From the NCBI GenBank assembly GCA_041657885.1, contig JBBABB010000001.1, forward strand, positions 129,094 to 193,093: DNA of 64,000 nucleotides, read 5' to 3'. The translations under genes and the position numbers were made by a program. This document shows, piece after piece, positions 4,345 to 61,115 of the stretch. The notes below the pieces were generated by a model, which saw nothing but the letters and a program-made list of their open reading frames with translations, had not been told where the DNA came from and searched no databases. Position 1 is the stretch's first letter, and every line of letters begins with the position of its first letter. The DNA comes from Minisyncoccota bacterium (GTDB lineage Bacteria; Patescibacteriota; Minisyncoccia; Phycocordibacterales; UBA9973).

Positions 4345-4572
4345 ATGTATATTAAGGTAAAAGTACAAGCTAATGCAAAAAAAGAAAATATAGAGAAAAA
4401 AAGTTCAGATTCTTATTTTATTTCAGTTAAAGAGAAAGCCGAAAGAAATTTGGCCAATAAGAGAATTTGTCAGATTGTGGCATCTTTGTTTGGTGTATCG
4501 ATAAAAAGTGTTAGAATTGTAAATGGACACCAAAGTCCAAATAAAATATTATCAATTAATTTAGTCTTTTGA
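4345..4572 (+). CDS. DUF167/YggU-family small protein
   Basis: 75-aa protein with the YggU-like pattern (..VKV.A.AKKNEI.......I.V.A.A..G.AN..L...LA..L.V....V.I..G..S..K...I). Confidence 0.5.
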   Translation: MYIKVKVQANAKKENIEKKSSDSYFISVKEKAERNLANKRICQIVASLFGVSIKSVRIVNGHQSPNKILSINLVF

Positions 4573-4576
4573 GATT

Positions 4577-4963
4577 ATGAAAACAAATATTAAAGCAACG
4601 AATATGGAGTTGACGGGTGCTATTACTGATTATGTGAACAAGCGATTAGCGGGGATAGAGAAGTTTGTAAAAGGAGGAGAAGAAATGATTGCTTATATAG
4701 AAGTGGGGAAAACAACAAATCATCATAAGCGAGGAGATATTTTTAGAGCTGAATTTAATATAGAGATATCAGGGGCTAAATTTTACACTTTTTCTGAAAA
4801 GGAAGATTTATATACAGCGATAGATGATGCAAAGGAAGAAATAGTCCGCCAGATAAAAACCAATAAAGATCGTAGACAAACTCTTTTCAAAAGAGGAGCT
4901 TCAAGTATAAAAAAAATGCTAAAAGGAGTATCAGACCGTAATCCTTTTACTTCTAAATATTAA
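4577..4963 (+). CDS. hpf: Ribosome hibernation promoting factor / ribosome-associated inhibitor (HPF/RaiA family)
   Basis: MKTNIKATNMELTGAITDYVNKRL...IEKF is a typical sigma54-modulation/HPF N-terminus. Confidence 0.8.
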   Translation: MKTNIKATNMELTGAITDYVNKRLAGIEKFVKGGEEMIAYIEVGKTTNHHKRGDIFRAEFNIEISGAKFYTFSEKEDLYTAIDDAKEEIVRQIKTNKDRRQTLFKRGASSIKKMLKGVSDRNPFTSKY

Positions 4964-5829
4964 TTTTGTCTCAAAAAATCTTCGTAATTAATTTCTTTTT
5001 TACCTTCAGGAGTGACCCTTTTAATGATAAATAGATTATTCTCATATACAGCTTCCTTTATTTTTACTCGTATTTTTTTGTTGTGCTTTGTTACAAAGAA
5101 ATATGTTCCTGGCCAACCGTAAAATGCACGATATTTGTTGTAAATTTTTTTCGGATTACCATCTATATCTATTTCCCCATCTTCTTTATTTATCTTGGAA
5201 CAGTAGGTTGCCTCTTTTTCATCTTGCACTTTAGGAGTGATACTTTTATTTATAATTTTAGGCATAATCTCACAAAGTAAATTTCCCCCCAGATTTATTA
5301 ATTTATTTTTTAAATCTTCTTTTTTTTCATTTATATCTATGGATATTTCTTTCGTGGCTAGTATTGGGCCACTATCTAATTTATATGCCATTTGCTGAAT
5401 ACTTACTCCTGTTCTGCTATCTCCATTTAAAAGTGATGCCTCAAGAGGGGAAGCGCCTCTCCATTTAGGCAGTAAAGAATAGTGAATATTTATTGTTCCT
5501 AGTGTTGGTATATAGATGAGGGCTTCTGGTAAAATTTTTCCATATGCGACAACCACGTAAAGATCTACATTAGTGGATCCACGTGGCAGGTCATCACAGG
5601 ATAGATCAGCAATGAATTCAGGGGTAATTTTTTCTGGTTTAAGGCACTCAATGTTATGTTTTTTTGCCCAGAGAGAAACAGGGCTAGGAGTTAAGTGTAA
5701 ACCTCGCCCAGCTGGTTTATCAGGAGAAGTGATAATAAGCGACGGCATATAGCCATTATTTTTTAATATATCGAGAGTATTACTCGCTATATCCGGAGTT
5801 CCAAAAAATGTAAATTTTAATTTTTCCAT
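4960..5829 (-). CDS. fmt: Methionyl-tRNA formyltransferase
   Basis: MEKLKFTFFGTPDIA...ITSPDKPAGRG...HYSLLPKWRGASP. ATG at 5829 chosen over the upstream TTG. Confidence 0.85.
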   Translation of the reverse strand: MEKLKFTFFGTPDIASNTLDILKNNGYMPSLIITSPDKPAGRGLHLTPSPVSLWAKKHNIECLKPEKITPEFIADLSCDDLPRGSTNVDLYVVVAYGKILPEALIYIPTLGTINIHYSLLPKWRGASPLEASLLNGDSRTGVSIQQMAYKLDSGPILATKEISIDINEKKEDLKNKLINLGGNLLCEIMPKIINKSITPKVQDEKEATYCSKINKEDGEIDIDGNPKKIYNKYRAFYGWPGTYFFVTKHNKKIRVKIKEAVYENNLFIIKRVTPEGKKEINYEDFLRQN

Positions 5830-8395: not shown

Positions 8396-8469
8396 ATTTT
8401 ATCACATAAATAGTATTGACAGGATAGGAAAATATGTGTTGTGTTGAGGTGAATTAAATATATTGTATG

Positions 8470-8587
8470 AGCCAGAGTCTGGAATAGTCCTCTCAGAGGG
8501 TACGAAAATTTTTTGCTAAAAATTTTCTCGGTTCTCGCGCCGTCGCGCTCCAAAGCCCCTCTGATAGGACTATTCCAGACTCTGGCT
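8470..8587. repeat. MITE-like structured repeat (family A, copy 1) with about 30-bp terminal inverted repeats
   Basis: agccagagtctggaatagtcctctcagaggg ... cccctctgataggactattccagactctggct. Internal hairpins (aaaattttttgctaaaaatttt; gcgccgtcgcgc). Shares its core with 25990..26084, 27088..27184 and 61021..61115. Confidence 0.7.
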
Positions 8588-10490: not shown

Positions 10491-10515
10491 CAGATAGGGG
10501 CTTAGCCCCTATCTG
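10491..10515. repeat. REP-like 25-bp perfect palindrome cagataggggcttagcccctatctg (copy 1, upstream of RAYT)
   Basis: Perfect inverted repeat. Copies at 10731..10755 and 11236..11260. Confidence 0.8.
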
Positions 10516-10544
10516 GGGAATTTAACTTGTAGTATAATAAAAAT

Positions 10545-11249
10545 ATGAGCATAAGAAAACAACCTTTAGTAACAGGGGAAATGTATCATATTTACAATCG
10601 CGGGGTAGACAAGCGAGATATTTTTTCAGATAAAAATGACATTTATCGTTTTATTGAAAGTATTAAAGAATTTAATAGAATAGAAAAAATAGACAGTCTT
10701 GCAAATCTAAGAAAAATAAAATCAAATTCTCAGATAGGGGCTAAGCCCCTATCTGAAGGACCGTTAGTAGAGATTATAGGATATTGCCTTAATCCTAACC
10801 ACTTTCATTTTATATTAAGACAGTCAAATGATAATGGAATCACTAAATTTATGCATAAACTTCTAGGGGGATATACATCTTATTTTAATATTAAAAATTC
10901 TAGATCAGGGTCTCTATTTCAAGGAACTTTTAAATCACAAACTATAACTAATGAAGATTATTTTAATAAGTTAATAGGTTATGTTAACAAAAACTATCAA
11001 ATTCACAGTATTCCAGAAAATAAAAATGATTTAGTTTTTTCGGGGGATTATGAATATGAAAATAATAAATTCAATATTATTTCTAAAAAAGAAGGGGAAA
11101 ATATTTTAGAGGTTTTTGGAGGTGTAAAAAAATTTAAAAAACATTGTGATGAAATAGTTTCTATTGTTAGAGAGGAAAGAGGTAAAAAATCTTTACTTGA
11201 AGATGAAGATTTGAATGTAATTATAGAAAGTCTCCCAGATAGGGGCTAA
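10545..11249 (+). CDS. REP-associated tyrosine transposase (RAYT; IS200-like HuH-Y1 transposase, COG1943 family)
   Basis: MYHIYNRGVDKRDIF...NPNHFHFIL (HuH) ...GGYTSYFN...SGSLFQGTFKS...YVNKNYQ matches the Y1_Tnp/RayT pattern. Flanked by REP palindromes. TATAAT 6 nt upstream of the ATG. Confidence 0.8.
   Translation: MSIRKQPLVTGEMYHIYNRGVDKRDIFSDKNDIYRFIESIKEFNRIEKIDSLANLRKIKSNSQIGAKPLSEGPLVEIIGYCLNPNHFHFILRQSNDNGITKFMHKLLGGYTSYFNIKNSRSGSLFQGTFKSQTITNEDYFNKLIGYVNKNYQIHSIPENKNDLVFSGDYEYENNKFNIISKKEGENILEVFGGVKKFKKHCDEIVSIVREERGKKSLLEDEDLNVIIESLPDRG
10731..10755. repeat. REP palindrome copy 2, in frame inside the RAYT ORF (encodes QIGAKPLSE)
   Basis: Same 25-mer (one central base differs), codon-aligned. 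Confidence 0.8.
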
Positions 11250-11260
11250 GCCCCTATCTG
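11236..11260. repeat. REP palindrome copy 3, overlapping the RAYT stop codon (TAA in the palindrome loop)
   Basis: Same 25-mer; the stop codon 11247..11249 lies in its centre. Confidence 0.8.
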
Positions 11261-11310
11261 AGAGATTGGGCGTTTTTGAGAGTTTTACGCTTTGATGTTT
11301 ATAAATTATT

Positions 11311-25967: not shown

Positions 25968-25989
25968 ATAATAAAATCAAAACGAAAAC

Positions 25990-26084
25990 AAATAGTCTTA
26001 TCAAAGGGGCTTTGGAGCGCGTCGGCGCGAGAACTGAGCAAATTTTTAGCAAAAAATTTGAGTACCCTTTGAGAAGAGCTATTT
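25990..26084. repeat. MITE-like repeat family A, copy 2 (inverted orientation)
   Basis: Reverse complement matches the core of 8470..8587; sits between convergent genes. Confidence 0.7.
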
Positions 26085-27029: not shown

Positions 27030-27087
27030 AGTAGTTATTTTATACTAAAAAATCAAAAATTCATAATAAAAAAATAGGGTCGTCCAT

Positions 27088-27184
27088 AAAATAGCTCTTC
27101 TCAAAGGGTACGCAAATTTTTTACTAAAAATTTGCTCGGTTCTCGCTCCGTCGAGCTCCAAAGCCCCTTTGATAAGACTATTTT
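27088..27184. repeat. MITE-like repeat family A, copy 3
   Basis: aaaatagctcttctcaaagggtac...ctcgctccgtcgagctccaaagcccctttgataagactatttt. Confidence 0.7.
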
Positions 27185-27196
27185 ATTTCCTCCCTC

Positions 27197-31697: not shown

Positions 31698-33671
31698 TTA
31701 GAGTAAATCCTCCGGGTCAACATTTATAGAAAAAGATAGAGGAAGGTGAGATAATGTCTCGTAGAGAACTTCATCTATTTTTTTCTCCCCATTTTCTATT
31801 AAAGGCCAAAAATCAGGATTAACTTTGATAACTGTGTTTGTAATATACTGACCTTTTATTTTACTGATGAATGCACTAAATATTTGCGGTTCATAATTAC
31901 TTAATAATTTTTCAATAAAATTTCTGGCCTTTTCTGTATCAGGGGCTGTTCCCTCAAAAGTAATTTTTATTAGTCGTTTAAAAGGAGGATAGCCAAAATC
32001 ACATCTCTCTTTCAAGTCCTCTCGACAAAGTGGAAGGACATTGCCACTGATTATATATTGTAGAATTTTATTTTCTGGCATGCGTGTCTGAATTACGAGA
32101 TTATTGGTAGTTACATAATGTAGCTTTTCTATAATGTGTAATATTTTTTGTGTAATGTTGAAACTGGGTATTGAAAAAAGACCATCAAGTGATATCACTG
32201 CGCTTGAGTGAATTTCATCTTGTAGATAAGAGAATACCATTTCAGTTCCGATTAATATACTTCCTGGAGTTTTGCTAAATTGTGTTATGGCGTTTTTTGC
32301 TTCTTTTGGAGTCGGTGTTGCTTCTTTGTCTATTTGGATAACTTTTACCTTGGGATATAAGCTTTTTATCTCCTCATAAACTTTGTCTGTTCCAATTCCA
32401 AGTGGAGTTAAATTCCAACTTGAACATTTTGGGCAACTAATTTCTGTTTTTTCTTTACGACCACATTTATTGCACATAAAAATTCTTGGGGTTGTAGATT
32501 TAGTTGCAGTTATTTGCTTCGTGCCATATAAGACAATGGGAGTAGAGCAAGAAGGGCATAAAAGAGTATTACCACAATCATTACAAACAGTTATAGGAGC
32601 TAATCCTTTACGAACAGAAAATAAAAAAACTGATTTATTTTTTTTAATCGCCACATCAATCATTTTTTTTGTTGTATTAGAAATTGTTGTAAAAACTTTT
32701 TTACCTTTTTCATTCACTTCTTCTTTCATATCCACAACAATTTGACGTTCTGTTTGAGGAAGACGATATAAGGGAGATAATATTTCTCCAAGTTCTCCTT
32801 GTTCGTGTCTATATAATGTCTCTGGACGAAGTAGTGTGTCTCCCAAAATTAGTTTTGTTTTTTGAATTGAAGATAAAACTTCAGCAAAACTTCTTATATC
32901 TATGTAAGGTCTTGCGATTTGTTTGTATGTGTCAGAGCTTTCATGTTCTAAAATAACTGTTTTTATATCAGAGCGAGGTATAGACATAAATATACCAGTA
33001 CCAATAATGAGAATGGGGTGAGTTTCACTTATCGCAGAATTATACATATTTACCAGTTTCTTTTTTGGCATATCAGAGTGAAAAGTAAAAACGTACTGTT
33101 CTATTCCCTTGGCAAGTTCTTTATTGAAATGGTCTATATCATAATGGTTTGGAACACACATAAAGACGGATTCTTTCTTGGCAAATGCTTCTCTGATAAG
33201 AGTGCGATAAAAAGCTAAACGATCAGGTTGAACTGCTTGGAAAATTAATTTTTCATGCTTCGCCTCGCCGGAGCCTTGTGCAGAGGCGGGTTTCGCCTCG
33301 CTTTCATTTTTACCTTCGTTTTTTTTGAGCTTACTTATATTCTCAATAAAAACTGATGGCAAGAGAGATTTAATAACAGAACCAGTATTACTAACTGTAT
33401 ATTTTTTAATTTTTTGACAAGCGATGAAAAAACTTTTATTGAAAGGTGAATCACCTTTTATTTTAATTATTTTTTTTAATTGATAGTCGGCATTTTTGAT
33501 GTCAGATTTTATATCTCTAGCTTCCTCCATATTAATAACAATTGCATCAAAAACTCTAGATCTAACCGGAATAGAAACAATACTTCCAATAGGGATATCA
33601 TTTGCGGAGAAATAAGATAAATATTCCTTTTGAGCTCCTTTTTGTATTGGTATAACAGTAGCGATATACAT
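31698..33671 (-). CDS. priA: Primosomal protein N' (PriA helicase)
   Basis: Cys4 zinc-binding region CNDCGNTLLCPSCS...CNKCGRKE..CPKCSS, helicase motifs. Confidence 0.85.
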   Translation of the reverse strand: MYIATVIPIQKGAQKEYLSYFSANDIPIGSIVSIPVRSRVFDAIVINMEEARDIKSDIKNADYQLKKIIKIKGDSPFNKSFFIACQKIKKYTVSNTGSVIKSLLPSVFIENISKLKKNEGKNESEAKPASAQGSGEAKHEKLIFQAVQPDRLAFYRTLIREAFAKKESVFMCVPNHYDIDHFNKELAKGIEQYVFTFHSDMPKKKLVNMYNSAISETHPILIIGTGIFMSIPRSDIKTVILEHESSDTYKQIARPYIDIRSFAEVLSSIQKTKLILGDTLLRPETLYRHEQGELGEILSPLYRLPQTERQIVVDMKEEVNEKGKKVFTTISNTTKKMIDVAIKKNKSVFLFSVRKGLAPITVCNDCGNTLLCPSCSTPIVLYGTKQITATKSTTPRIFMCNKCGRKEKTEISCPKCSSWNLTPLGIGTDKVYEEIKSLYPKVKVIQIDKEATPTPKEAKNAITQFSKTPGSILIGTEMVFSYLQDEIHSSAVISLDGLFSIPSFNITQKILHIIEKLHYVTTNNLVIQTRMPENKILQYIISGNVLPLCREDLKERCDFGYPPFKRLIKITFEGTAPDTEKARNFIEKLLSNYEPQIFSAFISKIKGQYITNTVIKVNPDFWPLIENGEKKIDEVLYETLSHLPLSFSINVDPEDLL

Positions 33672-37347: not shown

Positions 37348-39219
37348 ATGGAAATTAGAAATATAGCAATAATCGCCCACGTGGACCATGGAAAAACCAC
37401 TTTGACTGACCAGATGATGAAGCAATGCGGAATGGTGAAAGAAGGGGTTACCATGGATTCAAACGCTCTTGAACTTGAGCGTGGTATTACTATATATTCC
37501 AAAAACACTTCAGTAATTTATAAAGGAAAAAAAATAAATATTGTAGATACTCCAGGCCACGCGGACTTCGGTTCTGAAGTTGAGCGTGTTCTTCGCGCGA
37601 TTGATTCTGTGCTTCTACTTGTAGATGCGCAAGAAGGTCCAATGCCTCAAACTCGCTTTGTTTTGAAAAAGTCCCTTGAGTTAGGACTTAAACCGATTGT
37701 TGTAATAAATAAAATAGATAAGCCAGCCTCAAACCCAGCTCGCGTTCATGATGAGATACTTGAACTTTTCTTGGAGCTTGGAGCTACTCAAGAACAAATT
37801 GATTTCAAATATTTATACGCTATAAGTCGCCAAGGAATAGCAAAATTAAAACTTGAAGATGAATCCAAAGATTTAACTCCTTTATTTGATCTAATACTTT
37901 CTGAAGTTAAAGAAGCATCTGTCGATAAAAACGCTCCTTTTCGGGCGCAAGTTTTTAATCTTGGCTATGATAACTTTTTGGGGCGTTTGGCTATCGTTCG
38001 CGCTTATGCTGGGTCTATTAAAACTAGCTCTCAAATTATAGTAAAAGATACTGTTGGTAATTCTCGTAATGCTCGCATTTCTAAAATATTTACTTTCCAG
38101 GGGATAGATAGAAAAGAAGTAAGCGTATTAAATACTGGAGATATCGCTATTATCGCTGGAATTCCCGATGTCTATATTGGAGAAACAATTTGTGATGATA
38201 TAAATACGCAAGCTCTTCCCTCTATTGATATAGATGAACCAACAATTTCCTTAAATTTTTTAGTAAATGATTCTCCTTTTGCAGGTCGTGAAGGTAAGTA
38301 TGTGACGGGTAGACAAATAAGAGAGCGTCTCGAAAAAGAACTTGAAATGAACGTTGGTCTTCGAATCAACTTTGATGTTCCAGATGAAGAATTAGGAAAA
38401 GAAGCCCGCCCGAACGACGCAGTCGGGCAGGGATTTCTTGTCTACGGACGTGGTGAATTACATATTGCAGTACTACTAGAAAATATGCGTCGTGAAGGAT
38501 ATGAGCTCCAAGTTTCTCAGCCCCACGTAATTATAAAACCTGCCCGCCCTCACGAAAGTTCGGGAGCAGGCGGGGAAGAAAAAGTAACTATGTTGGAGCC
38601 GTATGAAGAAGCAACCATTGATGTCAGGAGTGAATTTTCTGGTTCAGTTATAGAAAAATTAACTGCGCGCCGAGGAATTATAACAAATATGCATGAGAAA
38701 GAAGGAATTGTTCGAATGTTGATAGAGATACCCACTCGAGGATTGCTCGGATATCGTGGACAATTTATTGTAGATACTAAAGGTGAAGGAATACTTGCTT
38801 CAAGATTTATTGGATTTAAAAATTATGCAGGAGAAATAAAAAAGCGAGATGTGGGGTCTATGACTTCAATGATTAATGGTAAAGTTGTTGCATTCTCACT
38901 TTGGACTCTACAAGAAAGAGGAACTCTGTATGTAGAGCATGGAGATGAAGTATATGAAGGAATGGTTATTGGAAATGTTATAAAAGGAGATGAATTGACG
39001 GTTAATCCAACAAAAGGGAAACAACTTTCCAATATGCGTTCTTCAGGCACTGATGAAGCAATCAATGTTAAGCCACCATATAAGTTGTCTATTGAGCGAG
39101 GACTTGAGGTTATGGCTGAAGATGAATATCTTGAAATTACACCCCAAAATACTCGCTTACGCAAGAAGCTTCTAACGGAACAAGACCGATCAAAATCAAA
39201 AACAGCTAAAAATAAGTGA
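37348..39219 (+). CDS. typA: Translational GTPase TypA/BipA, carrying a 12-aa in-frame insertion ([12 protein letters not shown])
   Basis: [35 protein letters not shown]. Insertion at 38539..38576 relative to E. coli/B. subtilis BipA. Confidence 0.9.
38539..38576. repeat. GC-rich palindromic element (family E) inserted in frame in typA
   Basis: cctgcccgccctcacgaaagttcgggagcaggcgggga; identical 38-mer at 43646..43683 in mnmA. Confidence 0.8.
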
Positions 39220-41817: not shown

Positions 41818-42684
41818 ATGCGTATATCAAATATATTCTTAATTTTTTGTTTTATTACCTTATTTTCATTTTTCTTTTTATCTACTCCTTCGGGAAATAA
41901 GGATATAATTTTTCATGTAGCATCTCGGCAATCAATAAATTCTATTACTCAAGAATTAGAAAATAAAAATGTTATTCGAAATGATTTTACTCTAAAAGTT
42001 TTTATTCAATTATTGAAGTCAGGAAAGGGTGTCATCGCGGGCGATTATTTGATTAAGAAAAATTCTCCAGTGTGGATTGTTGCTTGGCAGATAGGTAGAG
42101 GACATCATAAAATGAAACCGATTAGGATAACTATTAGAGAAGGTCTGACAAATGAAGAAATCGCTGTTTTACTTGCAGGCAAATTAACTGGTTTTCGACA
42201 AGATTTATTTTTATCTGGTGTAGAAAACAAACAGGGATATCTATTTCCAGATACATATTTCTTTTTTCCATTAGATACAGCTGACGAAATCATAGAACAA
42301 TTATCAAATAATTTTAAAAAAAGAATTGAAAATCTTTCTCCCTCTATAAATTCAAGTGGTAAAAATTTATCTGAGATTATAACTATGGCTTCAATACTTG
42401 AAGGTGAAGCCGGTGGAGAAGAAGATATTGCAATTATTTCTAGTATTTTATGGAAAAGAATTTCTATGGGAATGTCATTGCAAGTAGATACAGATAAATC
42501 TACTTATACCACAAATGGATTGCCCACTAAACCGCTGAATAATCCCGGATTATTATCTATAAATGCAGCGATAAATCCTATAAATTCTTCTTACTTGTAT
42601 TATCTTCATGATAAAAATGGTAAAGTACATTATGCTGTGACTTTTGAAGAACATAAGCGTAATATAGCTAATTATCTTAAATAA
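41818..42684 (+). CDS. mltG: Endolytic murein transglycosylase MltG (YceG-like)
   Basis: LFPDTYFF, ITMASILEGEAGGEEDIAIISSILWKR, GLPTKPLNNPG. Confidence 0.75.
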   Translation: MRISNIFLIFCFITLFSFFFLSTPSGNKDIIFHVASRQSINSITQELENKNVIRNDFTLKVFIQLLKSGKGVIAGDYLIKKNSPVWIVAWQIGRGHHKMKPIRITIREGLTNEEIAVLLAGKLTGFRQDLFLSGVENKQGYLFPDTYFFFPLDTADEIIEQLSNNFKKRIENLSPSINSSGKNLSEIITMASILEGEAGGEEDIAIISSILWKRISMGMSLQVDTDKSTYTTNGLPTKPLNNPGLLSINAAINPINSSYLYYLHDKNGKVHYAVTFEEHKRNIANYLK

Positions 42685-42742
42685 TCCGCCTTCGCATAAA
42701 ACTACGGCAAGACAAGTCCGCCAAAATTTTTACGAAAAAGAT

Positions 42743-44083
42743 ATGGTGATTAAAAATAATAAAACAGTATTTATTGGGGTTTCCCCGAATAGAAGAGTAC
42801 TTCCTACGGGGCAGGCAGGCGGAGTTAAGCCTACTGTTTTTGTTGGTGTTTCAGGAGGTGTTGACAGTTCGGTTTCCGCGGCCCTTTTAAAAGAGGCTAC
42901 ACCAAAAAATTTTAAAAAATTTTTTGGTCGCCCGACCCCGAAGGGGTTTAGAGGATACAATGTAGTTGGGGTTTTTATTCGTACTTGGACACCGGATTTT
43001 ATAGAATGTACTTGGAAAAATGAGCGTCGTGATGCTATGCGAGTATGTGCGCATCTTAATATTCCTTTTTTAGAATGTGATGCTGAAAAAGAATATAAAA
43101 AAAGTGTGGTAGATTATATGATTGAAGAATATAAAAAAGGTAATACTCCAAACCCCGATGTAATGTGTAATCGAGAAGTTAAATTTGGAGTGTTTTGGAA
43201 ATTTGCACAATCTCACGGGGCAGATTTTATTGCCACGGGGCACTATGCACGCAAATCTCCCCTCCTTGTGGAGGAGGGGGTAGGGGGTGGTGATCCAAAA
43301 GAATTACCACCTCGCCCTGCGGGCACTCCTCCTCGAAAAGGAGGAGAGGAAATGCATAAATTACTAAAAGGTATTGACTCATCCAAAGACCAAGTTTATT
43401 TTTTGTGGACTTTAACGCAGGAAGATTTGTCTCATATTTTATTTCCCATTGGACATTTAAAAAAGACAGAAGTTCGTAAACTTGCAAAGAAATATAATCT
43501 TCCAACTGCGACGAAAAAAGACAGTCAGGGTATTTGTTTTCTGGGGCTACTTGATATGAAGGATTTCTTGAGACACTATATTAAATCAGAAAAAGGGAAT
43601 GTTTTGCTTGCCCGTCACGATAGTGAATTAGGGAATGAAAAGGGACCTGCCCGCCCTCACGAAAGTTCGGGAGCAGGCGGGGAAATAATTGGAAATCATA
43701 ATGGCGCGGTATTTTTCACTCTTGGAGAAAGACATGGATTTACTCTTAATAAACATTCCGAAAATGATGAACCTTTATATGTAATATCAAAAGATATAAA
43801 AAATAACACCATTACTGTTTCCCCTAGGCCTTGCCTAGGGGAAGAAGACGAACCACATAGGACCGTCCTATGTAATAATGCAAACTGGATTTCAGGTATA
43901 CCAGAAAAAGATAAGGTGTATATAGCTCAAATTCGTTATCATGGAGAGTTTTTAGATTGTAAAGTGGTCGTCACAGGTCAGACCTGTGAAATAACTTTTG
44001 ATAAAAATGTAATTGTTGATAAAGGACAATCAATAGTTATTTATGATGGGGATATTTGCCTAGGGGGTGGTGTGGTAATTTAA
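42743..44083 (+). CDS. mnmA: tRNA-specific 2-thiouridylase MnmA with at least 5 in-frame GC-rich insertions
   Basis: VGVSGGVDSSVSA (PP-loop), NPDVMCN, TGHYAR, KDQVYFL, QGICFLG. 446 aa versus about 360 aa for orthologs. Confidence 0.8.
   Translation: MVIKNNKTVFIGVSPNRRVLPTGQAGGVKPTVFVGVSGGVDSSVSAALLKEATPKNFKKFFGRPTPKGFRGYNVVGVFIRTWTPDFIECTWKNERRDAMRVCAHLNIPFLECDAEKEYKKSVVDYMIEEYKKGNTPNPDVMCNREVKFGVFWKFAQSHGADFIATGHYARKSPLLVEEGVGGGDPKELPPRPAGTPPRKGGEEMHKLLKGIDSSKDQVYFLWTLTQEDLSHILFPIGHLKKTEVRKLAKKYNLPTATKKDSQGICFLGLLDMKDFLRHYIKSEKGNVLLARHDSELGNEKGPARPHESSGAGGEIIGNHNGAVFFTLGERHGFTLNKHSENDEPLYVISKDIKNNTITVSPRPCLGEEDEPHRTVLCNNANWISGIPEKDKVYIAQIRYHGEFLDCKVVVTGQTCEITFDKNVIVDKGQSIVIYDGDICLGGGVVI
43646..43683. 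repeat. Family E element, identical copy inserted in frame in mnmA
   Basis: The same 38-mer as in typA. Confidence 0.8.
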
Positions 44084-53652: not shown

Positions 53653-53735
53653 CATTTACAGGAGACAATTTCGATGAAAGTGTCTCCTGTTTTTAATTTT
53701 GCAAAATTGCATATTTTTTGTATACTAGTATCAAT

Positions 53736-54368
53736 ATGGATGAAGAAGAAATATCCGCCTCCGCTAAAAGCTACGGCGAGACAAAGGAAAATAAAATTGC
53801 AAATGAAGAAGATGAAACTGGTGAGAATTTTATTGACCTTGATGTTGTTGAGAGTACTGAAGATGGGGAAGAATTACCAGTGAAGGATGTCACAAAAAAA
53901 CTTCGCCAAGAAATAAAGAAACTCCAAAAAGAAAAAGAGGAATATTTGACTGGTTGGCAGAGAGCAAAAGCTGACTATATCAACCTCCAGAAAGAGCTCG
54001 ACCTCGTTCGGGTTAATGTTTCAATTTTAACGAGAGAAAAAATGACAGAAAAATTATTGCCTACCCTTGATAGTTTTGAGATGGCTTTCGCCAATAAAGA
54101 ACACTGGGAGAAAATAGATAAAGATTGGCAAGATGGAATTACTTCTATTTATCAGCAATTTATATCAGGGCTAGCCAATTCTGGAATTGAAAAAATAGAA
54201 GAGGCAGAAATTCCATTTGACCCAAATATTCACCAGTCAATAAGCGTGACTGAGACTAATGATGAATCAAAAAATCACACCGTAGAAAAAATACTCCAAG
54301 TTGGGTACAAAATAGGCGAGCGTGTTATCCGCCCAGCGAAAGTAACAATTTACGATTATAAGAAATAA
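53736..54368 (+). CDS. grpE: Nucleotide exchange factor GrpE
   Basis: C-terminal ...IEEAEIPFDPNIHQSISV...GYKIGERVIRPAKV matches GrpE. ATG at 53736 (TGTATACT 9 nt upstream); the ORF track starts at a TTG. Confidence 0.8.
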   Translation: MDEEEISASAKSYGETKENKIANEEDETGENFIDLDVVESTEDGEELPVKDVTKKLRQEIKKLQKEKEEYLTGWQRAKADYINLQKELDLVRVNVSILTREKMTEKLLPTLDSFEMAFANKEHWEKIDKDWQDGITSIYQQFISGLANSGIEKIEEAEIPFDPNIHQSISVTETNDESKNHTVEKILQVGYKIGERVIRPAKVTIYDYKK

Positions 54369-54370
54369 TA

Positions 54371-54455
54371 GTCGTTCCGCAGGATTATTAAAATTATTCG
54401 CGTTTTACCCAGAGTACTGGGTCCTACGCGACTCATAATTTAAACAATCCTGCTT
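54371..54455. repeat. About 90-bp multi-stem structured repeat (family D, copy 1) 3' of grpE
   Basis: gtcgttccgcaggattattaaaattattcgcgttttacccagagtactgggtcctacgcgactc...aatcctgc; near-identical copy at 57162..57248. Confidence 0.7.
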
Positions 54456-54461
54456 CACTAA

Positions 54462-55007
54462 TTATTTACACGATGAGAGAAATTCTTTTTTGGTGGCTTC
54501 GTCAATTTTATCCGTTACAATAATCATCATTTCTGATGTGAGGTTTAAATCTTTTTTAATATTTATAAAAAGATGCTCATATGGATATATTGAAACCCAA
54601 ACAGAATTTTTTATACAAATAAATCCAGCTTTTTTAAGAAGATATCGAAGAGCTTCGCGTTCGCTTTTTCTTTCTTCAGGAAGGTCAAGAATGATTATTC
54701 TCCAATAGCCGTCCCAATTATTAGAAACAAGAGCTGTATCATCATCTAAAGCATTATTATTAAGACGCTTTTTACCCTCTTCTGATAGTCGGAAATATGG
54801 TTGGTAGTCCGACTGGAAACACTCTACAAGCCCGTCTGACGCTAGATTCTTTATAGAACGGGATATTGCATATTCTGGCCTATTTTTGCTTGTATAGACG
54901 CCTTTTATTGTATTTTCAACCTCTTTTTTAAGAGAATCGAAAGAAACTGCCTTTTTTCTGGCTAGGGTTTTGAAAATTGCCTTCTGGATTGATGATTTTT
55001 TCTCCAT
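54462..55007 (-). CDS. PaaX-like winged-helix regulator paralog, antisense between grpE and dnaK
   Basis: WDGYWRIIILDLPEERKSEREALRYLLKKAGFICIKNSVWVSIYP (PaaX_C pattern). Start at MEKKS (55007), with TGATATAAT 7 nt upstream on the minus strand. Confidence 0.5.
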   Translation of the reverse strand: MEKKSSIQKAIFKTLARKKAVSFDSLKKEVENTIKGVYTSKNRPEYAISRSIKNLASDGLVECFQSDYQPYFRLSEEGKKRLNNNALDDDTALVSNNWDGYWRIIILDLPEERKSEREALRYLLKKAGFICIKNSVWVSIYPYEHLFINIKKDLNLTSEMMIIVTDKIDEATKKEFLSSCK

Positions 55008-55219
55008 GTTGACAATTATATCACTATAATATATATTACACAATAATTTCGTGGTCACGAAATACTTGTCAAAAATAAAAGATGAGTATATAATTGGTTT
55101 AGATTCTCCTCTTGAGGAGTACCCGTAGGGGGAGGTGGAGTATTCAAATGCATCCACCCCGGCTTTCAGCCACCCCTCAAGAGGGGAATTAATACAAAAT
55201 TATTAATAATTAAAAATAG

Positions 55220-55251
55220 CCGCCTACGCTTGAAGCTATGGCGAGCCAAAG
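55220..55251 (+). promoter_or_regulatory. Conserved 32-nt GC-rich motif ccgcctacgcttgaagctatggcgagccaaag 8 nt upstream of dnaK (copies at 53753..53784 in grpE 5' end and 42686..42716 upstream of mnmA)
   Basis: Three-way alignment conserved at nucleotide level in different reading frames or none. Confidence 0.5.
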
Positions 55252-55259
55252 AAAAATAT

Positions 55260-57161
55260 ATGGCAAAAATCATAGGTATAGATTTGGGTACAACAAATAG
55301 TGCGGTCGCAATAATTGAAGGTGGACAACCAAAAATTATAGAAAATATAGAAGGTGGTCGTACAACACCATCAGTAGTTGCTATTACCAAGAATGGTGAT
55401 CGAATGGTAGGACTTTTAGCAAAACGCCAAGCAGTCACAAATCCAGAAAATACTGTTTATGGGATTAAAAGATTTGTTGGTCATTTATATGATGACCCAG
55501 AAATAAAAAAAGATGAAAAAACTATTCCGTATAAAATTCAAAAAGGTTCAACTGGAGGTGTGGAAGTAAAAATGGGTGATCAATGGTTTCGTCCAGAAGA
55601 AATTTCAGCAAAAATTTTAGGAAAAATAAAAGCCGATGTTGAAGCAAAGCTCGGAGAGAAAATTACAGAAGCAGTTATCACTGTTCCTGCTTATTTTAAT
55701 GATGCTCAAAGAAAAGCAACCAAAGATGCTGGAATTATTGCCGGGCTGAGTGTTATGCGTATTATCAATGAACCTACTGCTGCCGCTCTTGCTTACGGGT
55801 TTAATAATAAAAAAAATGAAAAAATAGCTGTGTACGACTTTGGAGGTGGAACTTTTGATATTTCTGTTCTTGAAGTTGGAGATGATGTTATTGAAGTGAA
55901 ATCTACTGATGGCGACTCGCACATGGGTGGTGAAGATATTGACCAGAAAGTTGTAAAATGGATTGCTGATGAATATAAAAAAGAATCAGGTATTGATGTT
56001 ACAAAAGATATGCTTGCTCTACAGAGATTGAAAGAGGCGGCAGAAAAGACAAAGCATGAACTTTCCACAACCATGGAATCAGAAATAAATATTCCATTTA
56101 TTACTTCAGACGCCTCAGGTCCTAAGCATTTACTTTTGAAAATGACTAGAGCAACTCTTGAATCATTAGCCGAAGAATATATCACTCGCTCAATCGAAAT
56201 AACTAAAAGGGCATTTGAAGCTTCGCCATTTAAGATGAATGAAATTAATGAACTAATTCTTGTTGGCGGACAAACCAGAATGCCAGCTATATACGAAGCT
56301 GTTAAGAAATTGTTTGGACGTGAACCAAATCGTTCAATCAATCCAGATGAAGTTGTCGCACTCGGTGCTGCAGTTCAAGCAGGGGTTCTTCAAGGAGATG
56401 TTCGTGACGTTCTACTTCTTGATGTTATTCCATTATCTCTTGGAATTGAAACGTTAGGTGGAGTTGCTACTAAATTAGTTGACCGCAATACCACTATTCC
56501 AAGCTCAAAATCGCAAACATTTTCTACTGCGGCCGATAATCAAACATCTGTAGAAATTCATATTACTCAAGGTGAACGCCCAATGGCCTCTGATAACAAA
56601 TCTCTTGGAAGATTTATATTAGATGGAATTCCTCCAGCACCACGTGGCATGCCTCAAATTGAAGTTACTTTTGATGTAGATGCCAATGGAATACTTAATG
56701 TTAAGGCGAAAGATAAGGCCTCTGGCAAAGAACAATCTATTCGTATTGAAGCAAGTTCAGGGCTTACTGAAGCAGATATAAAGAAAATGCGTGATGAAGC
56801 GGAAGCACATGCTGGAGAGGACTTAAAGAAAAAAGAATTGGCAGATGAGAAAAATACAGCTGAGATGATAATCTTTACAGCCGAGAAATCATTAAAAGAA
56901 TATGGTGATAAAGTTCCAGCAGAAACAAAAACATTAATTGAAGAAAAGTTAGGAGCTGTTAGAACTGCAAAAGAAGGGTCTGATATAGGAGCAATCAAAA
57001 CTGCTATTGAAAACTTAACGACAGAACTTTCTAAAATTGGTGAAATAATGAATAAAGCAAATCAAGAAGCAAGTGCAAATGCAAATCAAAATCCAACCCC
57101 AGAAGAAAAAGGGGAAGAAATAAAAGATGCGGAAGTAAAAGAAGGGGAACAAAATAAATAG
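55260..57161 (+). CDS. dnaK: Chaperone DnaK (Hsp70)
   Basis: [40 protein letters not shown]-like C-terminus. Confidence 0.95.
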
Positions 57162-57248
57162 AGTCGTTTCGCAGGATTATTAAAATTATTCGCGCTTTAC
57201 CCAGAGTACTGGGGCCTACGCGACTCATAATTTCAACAAATCCTGCTC
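57162..57248. repeat. Family D structured repeat copy 2, between dnaK and dnaJ
   Basis: About 90% identical to 54371..54455. Confidence 0.7.
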
Positions 57249-57277: not shown

Positions 57278-58366
57278 ATGCCTAAAAATTATTACGAAAC
57301 ACTTGGAGTAAATAAAAATGCTTCGAAAGATGAGATAAAAAAAGCATTTCATAAACAAGCTCATAAATATCATCCTGATAAAAATAAGGGTGATGATAAA
57401 AAGTTCAAGGAAGTAAATGAAGCTTACCAAGTTCTTTCTGATGACCAAAAACGCTCTAGATATGATCAATTCGGCTCTGCTGATGGGCCCTCCTTCGCCG
57501 GAGGCTACGGCGGGGCGCAGCAAGGATTTGGAGGTTTTGACTTCTCAGGGTTCCAAAATGGCCAAAGTTACGATATGGGAGACCTTGGTGATATCTTTGG
57601 AGATTTTTTCGGAGGTGGTATGGGGCGTGGAACTAAAAATTCTCGTCGCGGGAGAGATATTCAAACAGAGATTGATTTAACTTTTGAAGAATCTATTTTT
57701 GGAGTAAATCGCAGAGTTTCAATTACAAAACAAGCAACTTGTGATATTTGTAAAGGAACTGGTGGAAAAGTTGGAACAAAAATGAATACTTGTAGGACTT
57801 GTAATGGACAAGGACAGATTCGTGAGATTCGCCGTTCTATTTTAGGGTCATTTTCTACGACGAAAATTTGTGACATATGTCTTGGAACTGGAAAAATTCC
57901 ATCGGAAAAATGTTCAAATTGTCATGGAGCTGGTGTATATAGGAAACAAAAAGAAATAGAATTAAATATTCCAGCTGGTATTAATAATGGAGAAATGCTT
58001 AAAATGTCTGGTGCTGGGGAGGATATCCAAGGAGGGCAATCTGGCGATTTATATATAAAAGTAAAAGTCAAACCACACCCATTATACAAACGCGACGGAC
58101 TCAATTTAACTATGGATTTACAGATTAAACTCACTGATGCCCTCCTTGGTATGACTTATAATTTAAGAATATTAGAAGGGAATACAATAGAAATTAAAAT
58201 TCCAGAAGGAATAAATCACAATGAATTACTTCGTGTGCGTGGCAAAGGTGTGCCATCTAGTCGTGGACGAGGAGATATAATTCTAAGAATAAAAGTGAAG
58301 ATGCCATTAAAACTTTCTCGTAAATCAAAAGAAATAATTGAAGAACTCAAGAAGGAGGGTGTATAA
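57278..58366 (+). CDS. dnaJ: Chaperone DnaJ
   Basis: J-domain YYETLGV...HPD, G/F-rich region, four CxxCxGxG repeats. Confidence 0.9.
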   Translation: MPKNYYETLGVNKNASKDEIKKAFHKQAHKYHPDKNKGDDKKFKEVNEAYQVLSDDQKRSRYDQFGSADGPSFAGGYGGAQQGFGGFDFSGFQNGQSYDMGDLGDIFGDFFGGGMGRGTKNSRRGRDIQTEIDLTFEESIFGVNRRVSITKQATCDICKGTGGKVGTKMNTCRTCNGQGQIREIRRSILGSFSTTKICDICLGTGKIPSEKCSNCHGAGVYRKQKEIELNIPAGINNGEMLKMSGAGEDIQGGQSGDLYIKVKVKPHPLYKRDGLNLTMDLQIKLTDALLGMTYNLRILEGNTIEIKIPEGINHNELLRVRGKGVPSSRGRGDIILRIKVKMPLKLSRKSKEIIEELKKEGV

Positions 58367-59998: not shown

Positions 59999-61015
59999 AT
60001 GAATACAAATTTAAACACATTAGAATTTATTCTAAAAAATTATAAGAACTTCAATGCTCGCGCAACGAAAGACGCGATGATTTCATATTGGCGTCATATT
60101 GAAAAAGGAGGCAAAATGTTTTGGGCTATGGGAGGAGCCATGTCTTCAGCTCAGCTTGGGATTACTCTTGCTCCAGCAATCAGGAATGGATTAATTTCAG
60201 GAATGTCTGTGACTGGGGCTAACCTTGAGGAGTCATTGTTCCGTCTCGTTGCCCACAAGAGCTACAAAGACTTTCCTGATTATAGATATTTTACAAAAGA
60301 AGATGATACAAAGATTTTAGAAGACCGTATGCGACGTGTGACAGATACAAGTATTCCTGAAGACGAAGCATTTCGTGTTGTTGAAAAACAAATTGTTCCT
60401 ACATGGAAAAAAGCTACAGTAGATGGGACAAGAAAATTTTGGCATGAATACTTTTATGAACTTATCCAATCAATTGATAAGAGTAAACACGAAGGAAGAG
60501 CAGATGAATGTTGGTTGCTTGCTGCAGCAGAGAAAAATATTCCAATAGTGGTACCTGGTTATGAGGACTCAACATTTGGAAATATTTTTGCTTCTTATGT
60601 AAAGACCGGTGAATGTAGTGCAAATATTGCTAAATCGGGTGTTGAATACATGGTGGCATGGTACGATCAGTATCAAGATTTGTCTAAGGATAAAGGAGTT
60701 GGACTTTTTCAAATTGGTGGAGGAATTGCGGGTGATTTTCCAATTTGTGTTGTTCCTTCTATAAAATATGATTTAAAAAAAGAAGTAAAACCATGGGCTT
60801 ATTTCTGCCAGATTTCAGATTCTACAACTTCTTATGGTTCATATTCCGGAGCAACCCCAAATGAAAAAATTACTTGGGATAAGCTTACGAAAGACACTCC
60901 GATGTTCGTCATTGAATCAGATGCTACTATTGTTGCCCCACTTATACTTACGGCACTTCTTGAGTGTAAAGCAAATCCAGGTGGAGCTAATAAATTAATA
61001 GAACAAATGGGTTAG
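59999..61015 (+). CDS. Deoxyhypusine synthase-like protein (possible homospermidine synthase)
   Basis: FWAMGGAMSSAQLG...GMSVTGANLEESLF resembles the DHS family. Confidence 0.55.
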   Translation: MNTNLNTLEFILKNYKNFNARATKDAMISYWRHIEKGGKMFWAMGGAMSSAQLGITLAPAIRNGLISGMSVTGANLEESLFRLVAHKSYKDFPDYRYFTKEDDTKILEDRMRRVTDTSIPEDEAFRVVEKQIVPTWKKATVDGTRKFWHEYFYELIQSIDKSKHEGRADECWLLAAAEKNIPIVVPGYEDSTFGNIFASYVKTGECSANIAKSGVEYMVAWYDQYQDLSKDKGVGLFQIGGGIAGDFPICVVPSIKYDLKKEVKPWAYFCQISDSTTSYGSYSGATPNEKITWDKLTKDTPMFVIESDATIVAPLILTALLECKANPGGANKLIEQMG

Positions 61016-61020
61016 GTTTG

Positions 61021-61115
61021 AAATAGCTTTTCTCAGAGGGTACACCAATTTCTTGGTAGAAATTCGTTCAGTGTTCGCTCCGTCGAGCTCACAAGCCCCT
61101 CTGATAAAACTATTT
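61021..61115. repeat. MITE-like repeat family A, copy 4
   Basis: aaatagcttttctcagagggtac...gctccgtcgagctcacaagcccctctgataaaactattt. Confidence 0.7.

Follow-up and report, generated by a model that had tools for sequence, protein, structure and literature searches.

A short hairpin repeat at grpE, dnaK and mnmA of a Patescibacteria genome resembles interspersed palindromic elements

The window analysed here is a 64,000-nt stretch of a Minisyncoccota bacterium contig (JBBABB010000001.1, positions 129,094 to 193,093), and its subject is a 32-nt GC-rich repeat found at the 5' ends of grpE, dnaK and mnmA. Pfam matches in the window comprise YceG, MnmA, L13, S9, GrpE, a minus-strand PaaX_M-domain protein, DnaK and DnaJ, which upholds the identities of GrpE, DnaK and MnmA given in a first-pass annotation of this DNA. 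The base composition is 31-38% G+C, and the window holds 25 GC-rich islands plus several other small families of short GC-rich repeats. The three sequences that the annotation had put forward are present, all on the plus strand, at 42686-42716, 53755-53785 and 55220-55250. The grpE copy had been placed 2 nt too low, at 53753..53784; its sequence and its location inside grpE were right, and its codons are 7-17 of a GrpE that starts at ATG 53736, not 6-16. The degenerate consensus, CCGCCTnCGCnnnAAnCTAyGGCrAGnCAAr, was matched with up to three mismatches at exactly three sites in the window, and in none of 100 dinucleotide-preserving shuffles. The copies occupy different reading frames or non-coding DNA, in agreement with the earlier view that conservation is at the DNA or RNA level.

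The repeat unit is one base longer at its 5' end than first drawn, because the extra base pairs with the base 3' of GGCGAG; the unit boundaries in Table 1 include it. Copy 1 is intercistronic: it begins 1 nt past the yceG stop codon (42682-42684), and 26 nt separate its end from the mnmA ATG (42743). G16>A and G24>A break two of its plus-strand pairs, so that it is partly degenerate; its fold on that strand is weak (-3.5 kcal/mol), and the minus strand folds better (-8.3). Copy 2 lies in frame in the disordered acidic N-terminus of GrpE, where its 33 nt encode SASAKSYGETK. Copy 3 ends 8 nt before the dnaK ATG at 55260; its hairpin (55219-55246) has a predicted energy of -11.2 kcal/mol at 37 °C (z -2.2), and the last 13 nt ahead of the AUG take no part in pairing. 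A TTG-started dnaK open reading frame (ORF) that runs through this copy is a spurious N-terminal extension, a point of use for annotation. The degenerate copy 4 is in frame and sense within a minus-strand PriA-like gene (31698..33671, with the PriA 3'BD domain matched) and is preceded by a partial tail, AGCGAGGCGAAA, reaching 33301. A match in dnaJ (57487-57521, 14.7 bits with the covariance model R1 described below) was rejected as a copy, being a natural Gly/Phe-rich region that is the same in relatives.

We scanned one genome per GTDB species with CCGCCTNCGCNNNRANCTAYGGCRAG and obtained at least 117 loci. About 100 of the matches listed are true family members of the form ...AAGCTAYGGCGAG...; the others, from high-GC genomes (...GACCTAYGGCAAG), look like coding coincidences and probably are. 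Each unit comprises an outer stem, N-CCGCC opposite GGCG-(bulged A)-G-N', and a 3x3 internal loop (UNC / UAY), inside which stands an inner stem closed by G:C and ending in a variable loop; a CAAAG tail follows 3' of the outer stem. The search pattern left the closing pair and the tail free. Among the matches listed, the closing pair N0:N27 forms in 92 of the 96 distinct copies (CG 40, UA 28, GC 19, UG 3, AU 2) and the tail C-A-A-(A)-G is conserved. None of 500 shuffles reached the observed covariation score at the closing pair, and the signal was lost when the partner column was slid. R1, built on the hairpin structure, recovers variants with compensatory changes at further pairs (T1:A26, T10:A16 and T5:A21) and with inner stems of 2-8 bp. 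Overall, 98% of cells are paired and four pairs are changed on both sides; at the orthologous dnaK site, locus L138 carries a compensatory T4:A22. The stems are kept by compensatory changes. Departures from pairing are about as frequently G-U as C-A, which gives no preference for either strand as the one that folds.

Chance, or convergence of low-complexity sequence at the level of protein or codons, would explain the Gly/Phe-rich dnaJ match and probably the high-GC matches of the form ...GACCTAYGGCAAG. For the three main copies it is already refuted by the empty shuffles, by R1 E-values of 1e-10 to 1e-12, by the occurrence of the motif in different frames or in non-coding DNA, and by the covarying pair and tail that about 100 listed family members share at positions the search did not constrain. 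We regard its probability as negligible. Known RNA families gave no match either. A scan of the window at the Rfam gathering thresholds returned three tRNAs only, leaving the hairpin repeat without a family, and a permissive scan around the dnaK copy returned nothing better than E ~1.7. Two further likenesses were dropped, that to the preQ1-I riboswitch (UUC..AGCUAC plus an A-rich tail), to which Rfam gives no support, and that to a K-turn, for which Rfam support is likewise absent and tandem G-A pairs are missing from the positions a K-turn needs.

The first-pass annotation had proposed that the motif could be the heat-shock operator of the lineage or an RNA thermometer of grpE and dnaK, two of the three strong window copies lying at the 5' ends of these genes. 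It had named absence upstream of the chaperone genes of relatives, with copies scattered randomly with respect to genes, as the outcome that would speak against this. The comparison was run on 80 metagenome loci encoding a DnaK 77-93% identical to that of the window, restricted for the dnaK count to the 74 with enough upstream sequence. R1 found the repeat upstream of dnaK in only two of the 80 (L138 and L151), and a tolerant regular expression found it in 2 of the 74. Reading the 110 nt before each dnaK ATG gave the same two carriers, other lineages having unrelated GC-rich hairpins or nothing at this place. L094 and the identical contig L119 also have a copy at this leader site; in 72 of the 74 relatives the site is either empty or occupied by other inserts. 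On a neighbour-joining tree of DnaK the carriers (the window, L094, L138 and L151) are scattered, each with motif-less sisters. At grpE, R1 found no copy in the 80 relative loci, GrpE itself being detected in 34 of the 82 loci searched. The third and fourth window copies lie at mnmA and in priA, and in other genomes unrelated genes follow the repeat. In favour of a chaperone role, the dnaK copy is kept at the same place in L094, L138 and L151.

The thermometer version fares no better. RNA thermometers hide the Shine-Dalgarno sequence (SD) or the AUG behind weak pairs. The dnaK hairpin is predicted to be stable at 37 °C and spares both the start codon and the ribosome-binding site, and the grpE copy is located downstream of the AUG, within coding sequence, 3' of a leaderless-type start. 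A role as SD donor, considered as the tail runs into GGAGG in some lineages, was also rejected, since dnaK leaders in the lineage lack an SD whether or not they carry the repeat. The likeness to CIRCE/HrcA, HAIR/HspR, ROSE and fourU is limited to the position of one copy upstream of dnaK; the repeat has no sequence match to these elements, is not conserved in relatives and is not restricted to chaperone genes, and, in a difference from the ROSE and fourU thermometers, its hairpin occludes neither SD nor AUG. A different and truly conserved palindrome, described below, occupies the dnaK promoter. Judged on these sequence comparisons, the heat-shock reading is largely refuted, and we consider it very improbable. 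The alternative that the annotation had offered in passing, a remnant of another small mobile element, was right in kind and fits the evidence.

The grpE copy is a 33-nt in-frame insertion compared with the closest relative, L132. A conserved M(N/D/K)xEE.. start is present in each of the 15 relatives whose GrpE N-terminus was read. It is the very beginning of the protein in most of them, and in two a longer open frame runs ahead of it. The window GrpE therefore starts at ATG 53736. An alternative start downstream of the repeat was rejected, as ATG 53803 lies in another frame and a conserved MDEEEI start is seen in the relatives. Exact-protein look-ups of the GrpE start variants found no record. 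In place of these 33 nt (11 codons) of the window grpE, L132 reads AAAAATAAA, while the disordered region of L139 and of L127 contains inserts of other hairpins. A further in-frame copy of the repeat lies within an ORF of L026. In most of these relatives a promoter-like TTTTTGTATAcT box stands just ahead of the grpE start, with 7-10 nt of spacer between the two, an arrangement which suggests that the grpE mRNA would be leaderless or nearly so across the lineage. In the window (53699-53738) and in relatives, a promoter-like TTGCAA-16-TATACT ends ~9 nt before the ATG, and a terminator-like hairpin lies 5' of this promoter.

The hosts among the matches listed include many Patescibacteria groups, Verrucomicrobiota (soil bins, Opitutaceae and the isolate Pelagicoccus mobilis), Desulfobacterales, Pirellulales, Nitrospirales and Bacteroidia. 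One match was found among phage contigs (IMG/VR) and none among plasmids (PLSDB), and a phage or plasmid origin was set aside on these counts. Genes whose start codons lie 0-35 nt after the repeat encode glutamate dehydrogenase, DnaX, S15, NifU, a HAD hydrolase, RbfA and S3. In a release-factor gene the repeat precedes an internal start, and this copy may be inside the gene. About 17 copies among the matches listed end no more than 35 nt before a start codon. Copies adjoin upstream stop codons and downstream start codons at about equal frequency, which is what a 32-nt insert in the short spacers of compact genomes should give, and they also occur within long ORFs. In loci below 48% G+C, where ORFs are reliable, the copies informative for orientation are 39 sense and 7 antisense to the gene. 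For genes on the minority strand of a locus, a crude majority-strand proxy with small numbers, the repeat is oriented with the gene in 10 of 14 cases. The result is a mild argument for a bias linked to transcription and not to replication, and on it replication strand was set aside as the cause of the orientation bias.

In two loci, L047 and L091, the repeat is helix P12 of RNase P RNA, and by sequence this holds also for L036; the orientation is always sense, and in L047 the repeat forms P3 too (Table 1). The RNase P RNAs of L047 and L091 score best with the archaeal Rfam model (92-96 bits). The L047 SecD and SecF proteins pass the NCBIfam SecD/SecF equivalog models far above the alternative SecD/SecF models; we take the equivalogs to be bacterial-type and the alternatives archaeal-type, and archaeal hosts are not claimed for these loci. 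The bins bearing these RNase P RNAs are labelled Gammaproteobacteria. Helix P3 of the E. coli RNase P RNA was rejected as a family member, R1 giving at most 4.5 bits on rnpB.

Such placements raise the alternative of a selected RNA module that acts in cis, by binding a protein or stabilising a structure, with dispersal being secondary. Possible roles would be a stabiliser of 5' leaders or intercistronic regions, a signal for RNase processing or insulation, or a structural building block. This account would cover the sense bias and the gene-following minority-strand copies, the group of copies close to start codons, the conserved unpaired tail and covarying stems, the presence of the hairpin as both P3 and P12 in a single RNase P RNA and as P12 in at least two further bins, always sense, and the compensatory T4:A22 at the dnaK site of L138. 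Set against it, the repeat is dispensable at these genes, being missing at dnaK in 72 of 74 relatives and at grpE in every other relative, start codons are abutted no more commonly than stop codons, as compaction predicts, and some copies are translated in frame within proteins. Moreover, no Rfam family was matched in the window or around the dnaK copy, the parity of G-U and C-A departures favours neither strand, and exposure of single-stranded DNA coupled to transcription could give the same strand bias. On balance we hold a selected RNA module to be unlikely, while giving it serious weight.

We favour a different account as the probable one, namely that the repeat is a short selfish or near-neutral interspersed hairpin repeat, similar to repetitive extragenic palindromes (REPs) and Rickettsia palindromic elements (RPEs), and that its location at grpE, dnaK and mnmA is incidental. 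This reading follows from its presence and absence in relatives, its tolerance in frame, its arrays, its sub-families and the compensatory changes in its stems. Insertion would be sporadic, and its targets would be AT-rich spacers between genes, 5' leaders and disordered coding segments that tolerate it. Spread may be a DNA-level process in which a trans-acting enzyme recognises the hairpin as a single-stranded intermediate; HUH/Y1 proteins of the REP-associated tyrosine transposase (RAYT)-like kind would be the candidate class. Copies would then persist wherever the hairpin, once transcribed, does no harm or is of slight use, as in an mRNA-leader stem or in P3 and P12 of RNase P RNA.

The closest parallel is with REPs. 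Tagged REPs are imperfect palindromes with an unpaired tag, and their sub-families differ by complementary stem changes; they occupy transcribed locations, have intragenic copies that include replication and repair genes, and form families across phyla (PMC3733652). The present repeat is similar to the GTAG and CGTC superfamilies in being a 20-40 nt imperfect GC-rich palindrome with a bulge and an internal loop, in its short conserved unpaired motif at the foot of the stem (here CAAAG on the plus strand, CTTTG on the minus), and in having sub-families with compensatory changes, mostly intergenic transcribed sites, some genic copies and a range of several phyla. In its long-inner-stem variants (L002), a minus-strand GTAG directly precedes a 6-bp stem as in GTAG REPs. 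The terminal tag is, however, neither GTAG nor CGTC, and the minus-strand GTAG lies in the internal loop within an extra outer stem. In contrast to the REPIN and BIME arrangements, no inverted pairs were seen among the loci examined, the units being solitary or head-to-tail, and a head-to-tail arrangement is rare for REPs (PMC3733652). The repeat also appears to differ in its low copy density in the window and loci, and differs in the lack of a RAYT flanked by it in the loci searched. The supplementary text of the REP survey (PMC3733652) does not contain the 32-nt motif sequence.

The repeat resembles RPEs in its in-frame insertion into protein genes, here the GrpE N-terminus and PriA. These elements, reportedly described by Ogata et al. 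in 2000, are palindromic repeats of an AT-rich reduced genome that insert in frame in genes and are tolerated in surface or disordered segments; RPE-1 is ~100-150 bp long and restricted to Rickettsia. The present repeat is 32-33 nt, occurs in several phyla, and is not known to resemble RPE sequences. RPE-4 and RPE-6 have been equated with CGTC REPs (PMC3733652). Similar to miniature inverted-repeat transposable elements (MITEs), the repeat is small and non-autonomous, alters leaders, can add peptide segments and differs in presence between strains. MITEs, of which the Neisseria Correia elements are an example, are usually longer than 100 bp and have terminal inverted repeats and target-site duplications. 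The only inverted repeat of the 32-nt unit is the hairpin itself, and its A-rich flanks allow no target-site duplication to be called. The Coxiella QMITEs (PMC5896051) are another example of MITEs.

Several observations weigh against a selfish, REP- or RPE-like repeat. No target-site duplication or clean empty/filled junction is definable between the window and L132 grpE, whose filled and empty sites differ in an A-rich tract. At 3-4 copies per 64 kb in the window, and usually one per 8-kb locus elsewhere, copy density is modest compared with classical REPs. The non-Patescibacteria hosts are mostly metagenome bins, some with doubtful labels, and one bin labelled 'Gammaproteobacteria' looks Patescibacteria-type. 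The near-identity across phyla, the sense bias and the use in P3 and P12 could instead indicate a selected RNA function. The four dnaK-leader copies share their junction and closing pair, which could reflect retention or transfer of a useful leader and not repeated insertion. Finally, a mobilising enzyme was sought with an E. coli RayT query, then with a profile made from the first matches, on six-frame ORFs of the loci and the window, and no transposase flanked by the 32-nt repeat was found in ~120 motif-centred loci (8-kb slices) or the window. The profile search gave RAYT-like Y1/HUH genes only at window 10545-11249 and in L026, L023, L154 and L170; the genes inspected (window, L026 and L023) are flanked by other repeats, and a RAYT association of the 32-nt repeat was rejected.

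A more specific and rather doubtful extension is that the family forms an undescribed, cross-phylum, sense-strand-restricted module, either a third REP tag class or an RNA motif recognised by a factor, which became domesticated in Patescibacteria. As a REP class the module would be CTTTG-tagged and arrayed head-to-tail, and a broad-host-range enzyme acting on single-stranded DNA exposed by transcription would mobilise it; as an RNA motif it would be bound by a conserved factor. Under both versions the unit would lend stability as a structural part of mRNA leaders and of P3 and P12 of the RNase P RNA of genome-reduced Patescibacteria. In the literature searched we found no paper containing 13-mers of the repeat or its encoded peptides, and no description of such repeats in Patescibacteria; the family appears to be undescribed there. 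For annotation, inserts of this kind explain odd GC-rich peptides such as SASAKSYGETK in GrpE, and enlarged Patescibacteria genes, and they should not be read as regulatory sites. A near-identical 32-nt hairpin in Patescibacteria, Verrucomicrobiota, Desulfobacterales and Planctomycetes also offers a handle on movement between lineages and on the domestication of selfish palindromes.

Head-to-tail arrays of the 32-nt unit without spacers are present in L013, L085, L099, L105 and L002. The L013 array (~4750-5046, minus strand) has at least five units and is partly masked by N, and in L002 variants with short and long inner stems alternate. In four Desulfobacterales bins (L003, L016, L065 and L117) the repeat stands in identical longer flanks, GGCCCTAAAGGATTCTATATAGCCACAGAC...ACACACCGACAGACCCCAGTTGAATAGGCTGCGC, and there it may belong to a longer conserved repeat or RNA.

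The element that the relatives do share at dnaK is a palindrome, TATTTnGyGryCrCnAAATA, which shows up when the dnaK region of the window is aligned with L094 and L119. Of 74 loci, 72 have it in the 400 nt ahead of dnaK. The window copy sits between two strong sigma-70-like promoters (55009-55037 and 55066-55094). In 75 of 76 relatives the divergent neighbour of dnaK is a PaaX_M-domain gene, which corresponds, by the 181-aa gene call in L119, to 54462-55007 on the minus strand of the window. The palindrome is a better candidate than the 32-nt repeat for the operator of the adjacent PaaX-like regulator. The first-pass annotation had seen neither CIRCE nor HAIR at these genes, and the palindrome together with the divergent PaaX-like winged-helix protein could be the missing heat-shock regulator of this Paceibacteria-like lineage. 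No paper linking a PaaX-like protein to dnaK was found in the searched literature.

Table 1. Copies of the hairpin repeat and associated features, in window coordinates unless a locus is named
Feature	Coordinates	Strand	Sequence or context	R1 score (bits)	E-value
Copy 1	42685..42716	+	T-CCGCCTTCGCATAAAACTACGGCAAG-A-CAAG, 32 nt	46.9	1.9e-10
Copy 2	53754..53786	+	T-CCGCCTCCGCTAAAAGCTACGGCGAG-A-CAAAG	54.1	
Copy 3	55219..55251	+	G-CCGCCTACGCTTGAAGCTATGGCGAG-C-CAAAG, dnaK 5' leader	49.7	
Copy 4 (degenerate)	33257-33291	-	ACCCGCCTCTGCACAAGGCTCCGGCGAGGCGAAGC	23.5	4e-4
dnaK palindrome	~55040-55069		core TTTCGTGGTCACGAAA at 55047-55062, unique in window		
RNase P RNA, L047	150-470	-			
RNase P RNA, L091	727-1017	+			
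RNase P RNA, L036	~4531-4565				

The dnaK leader contains three more GC-rich hairpins between 55103 and 55200, namely ctcctcttgaggag, ggaggtgga...tccacccc and ccacccctcaagagggg. One part of this leader (…ccacccctcaagaggggaattaataca) is common to the window and L151 and is absent from the other relatives read. A 78-nt structured repeat (about -21.6 kcal/mol) occurs at 54370-54447 and 57162-57239 with 95% identity, in each case beginning right after the stop codon, of grpE and dnaK respectively. It is also found 3' of dnaK in the relative L142, with fragments in L139 and L131, and would be either another small inserted element or a shared terminator cassette.

MnmA (42743-44083) is 446 aa long and its gene has several GC-rich islands, at 42799-42831, 42923-42949, 43257-43337 and 43642-43665. 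The Pfam HUP-domain match in MnmA is split into two stretches, and identical 40-mers lie 5 kb apart at 38538-38577 and 43645-43684, the latter in mnmA. The islands are probably multiple in-frame insertions of other repeat families.

The RAYT-like gene of the window (10545-11249, plus strand, 234 aa) passes the Pfam Y1_Tnp threshold and has a weak match to NCBIfam REP_Tyr_transpos. It is flanked by copies of its own hairpin repeat (CAGATAGGGGCTWAGCCCCTATCTG; CAGATAGGGGCTTAGCCCCTATCTG) at 10491 and 11236, forming a REPtron-like unit (10491-11267), and a third copy lies at 10731, in frame inside the transposase gene itself. The RAYT-like gene of L026 is flanked by yet another hairpin, and that of L023 has terminal inverted repeats of the GGGGTCAG type. 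A separate family of ~100-120 nt repeats is present in both orientations, with 73-92% identity, at 8456-8575, 25984-26084, 27064-27189 and 60996-61115 (and 658-685); it has internal inverted repeats and resembles a MITE.

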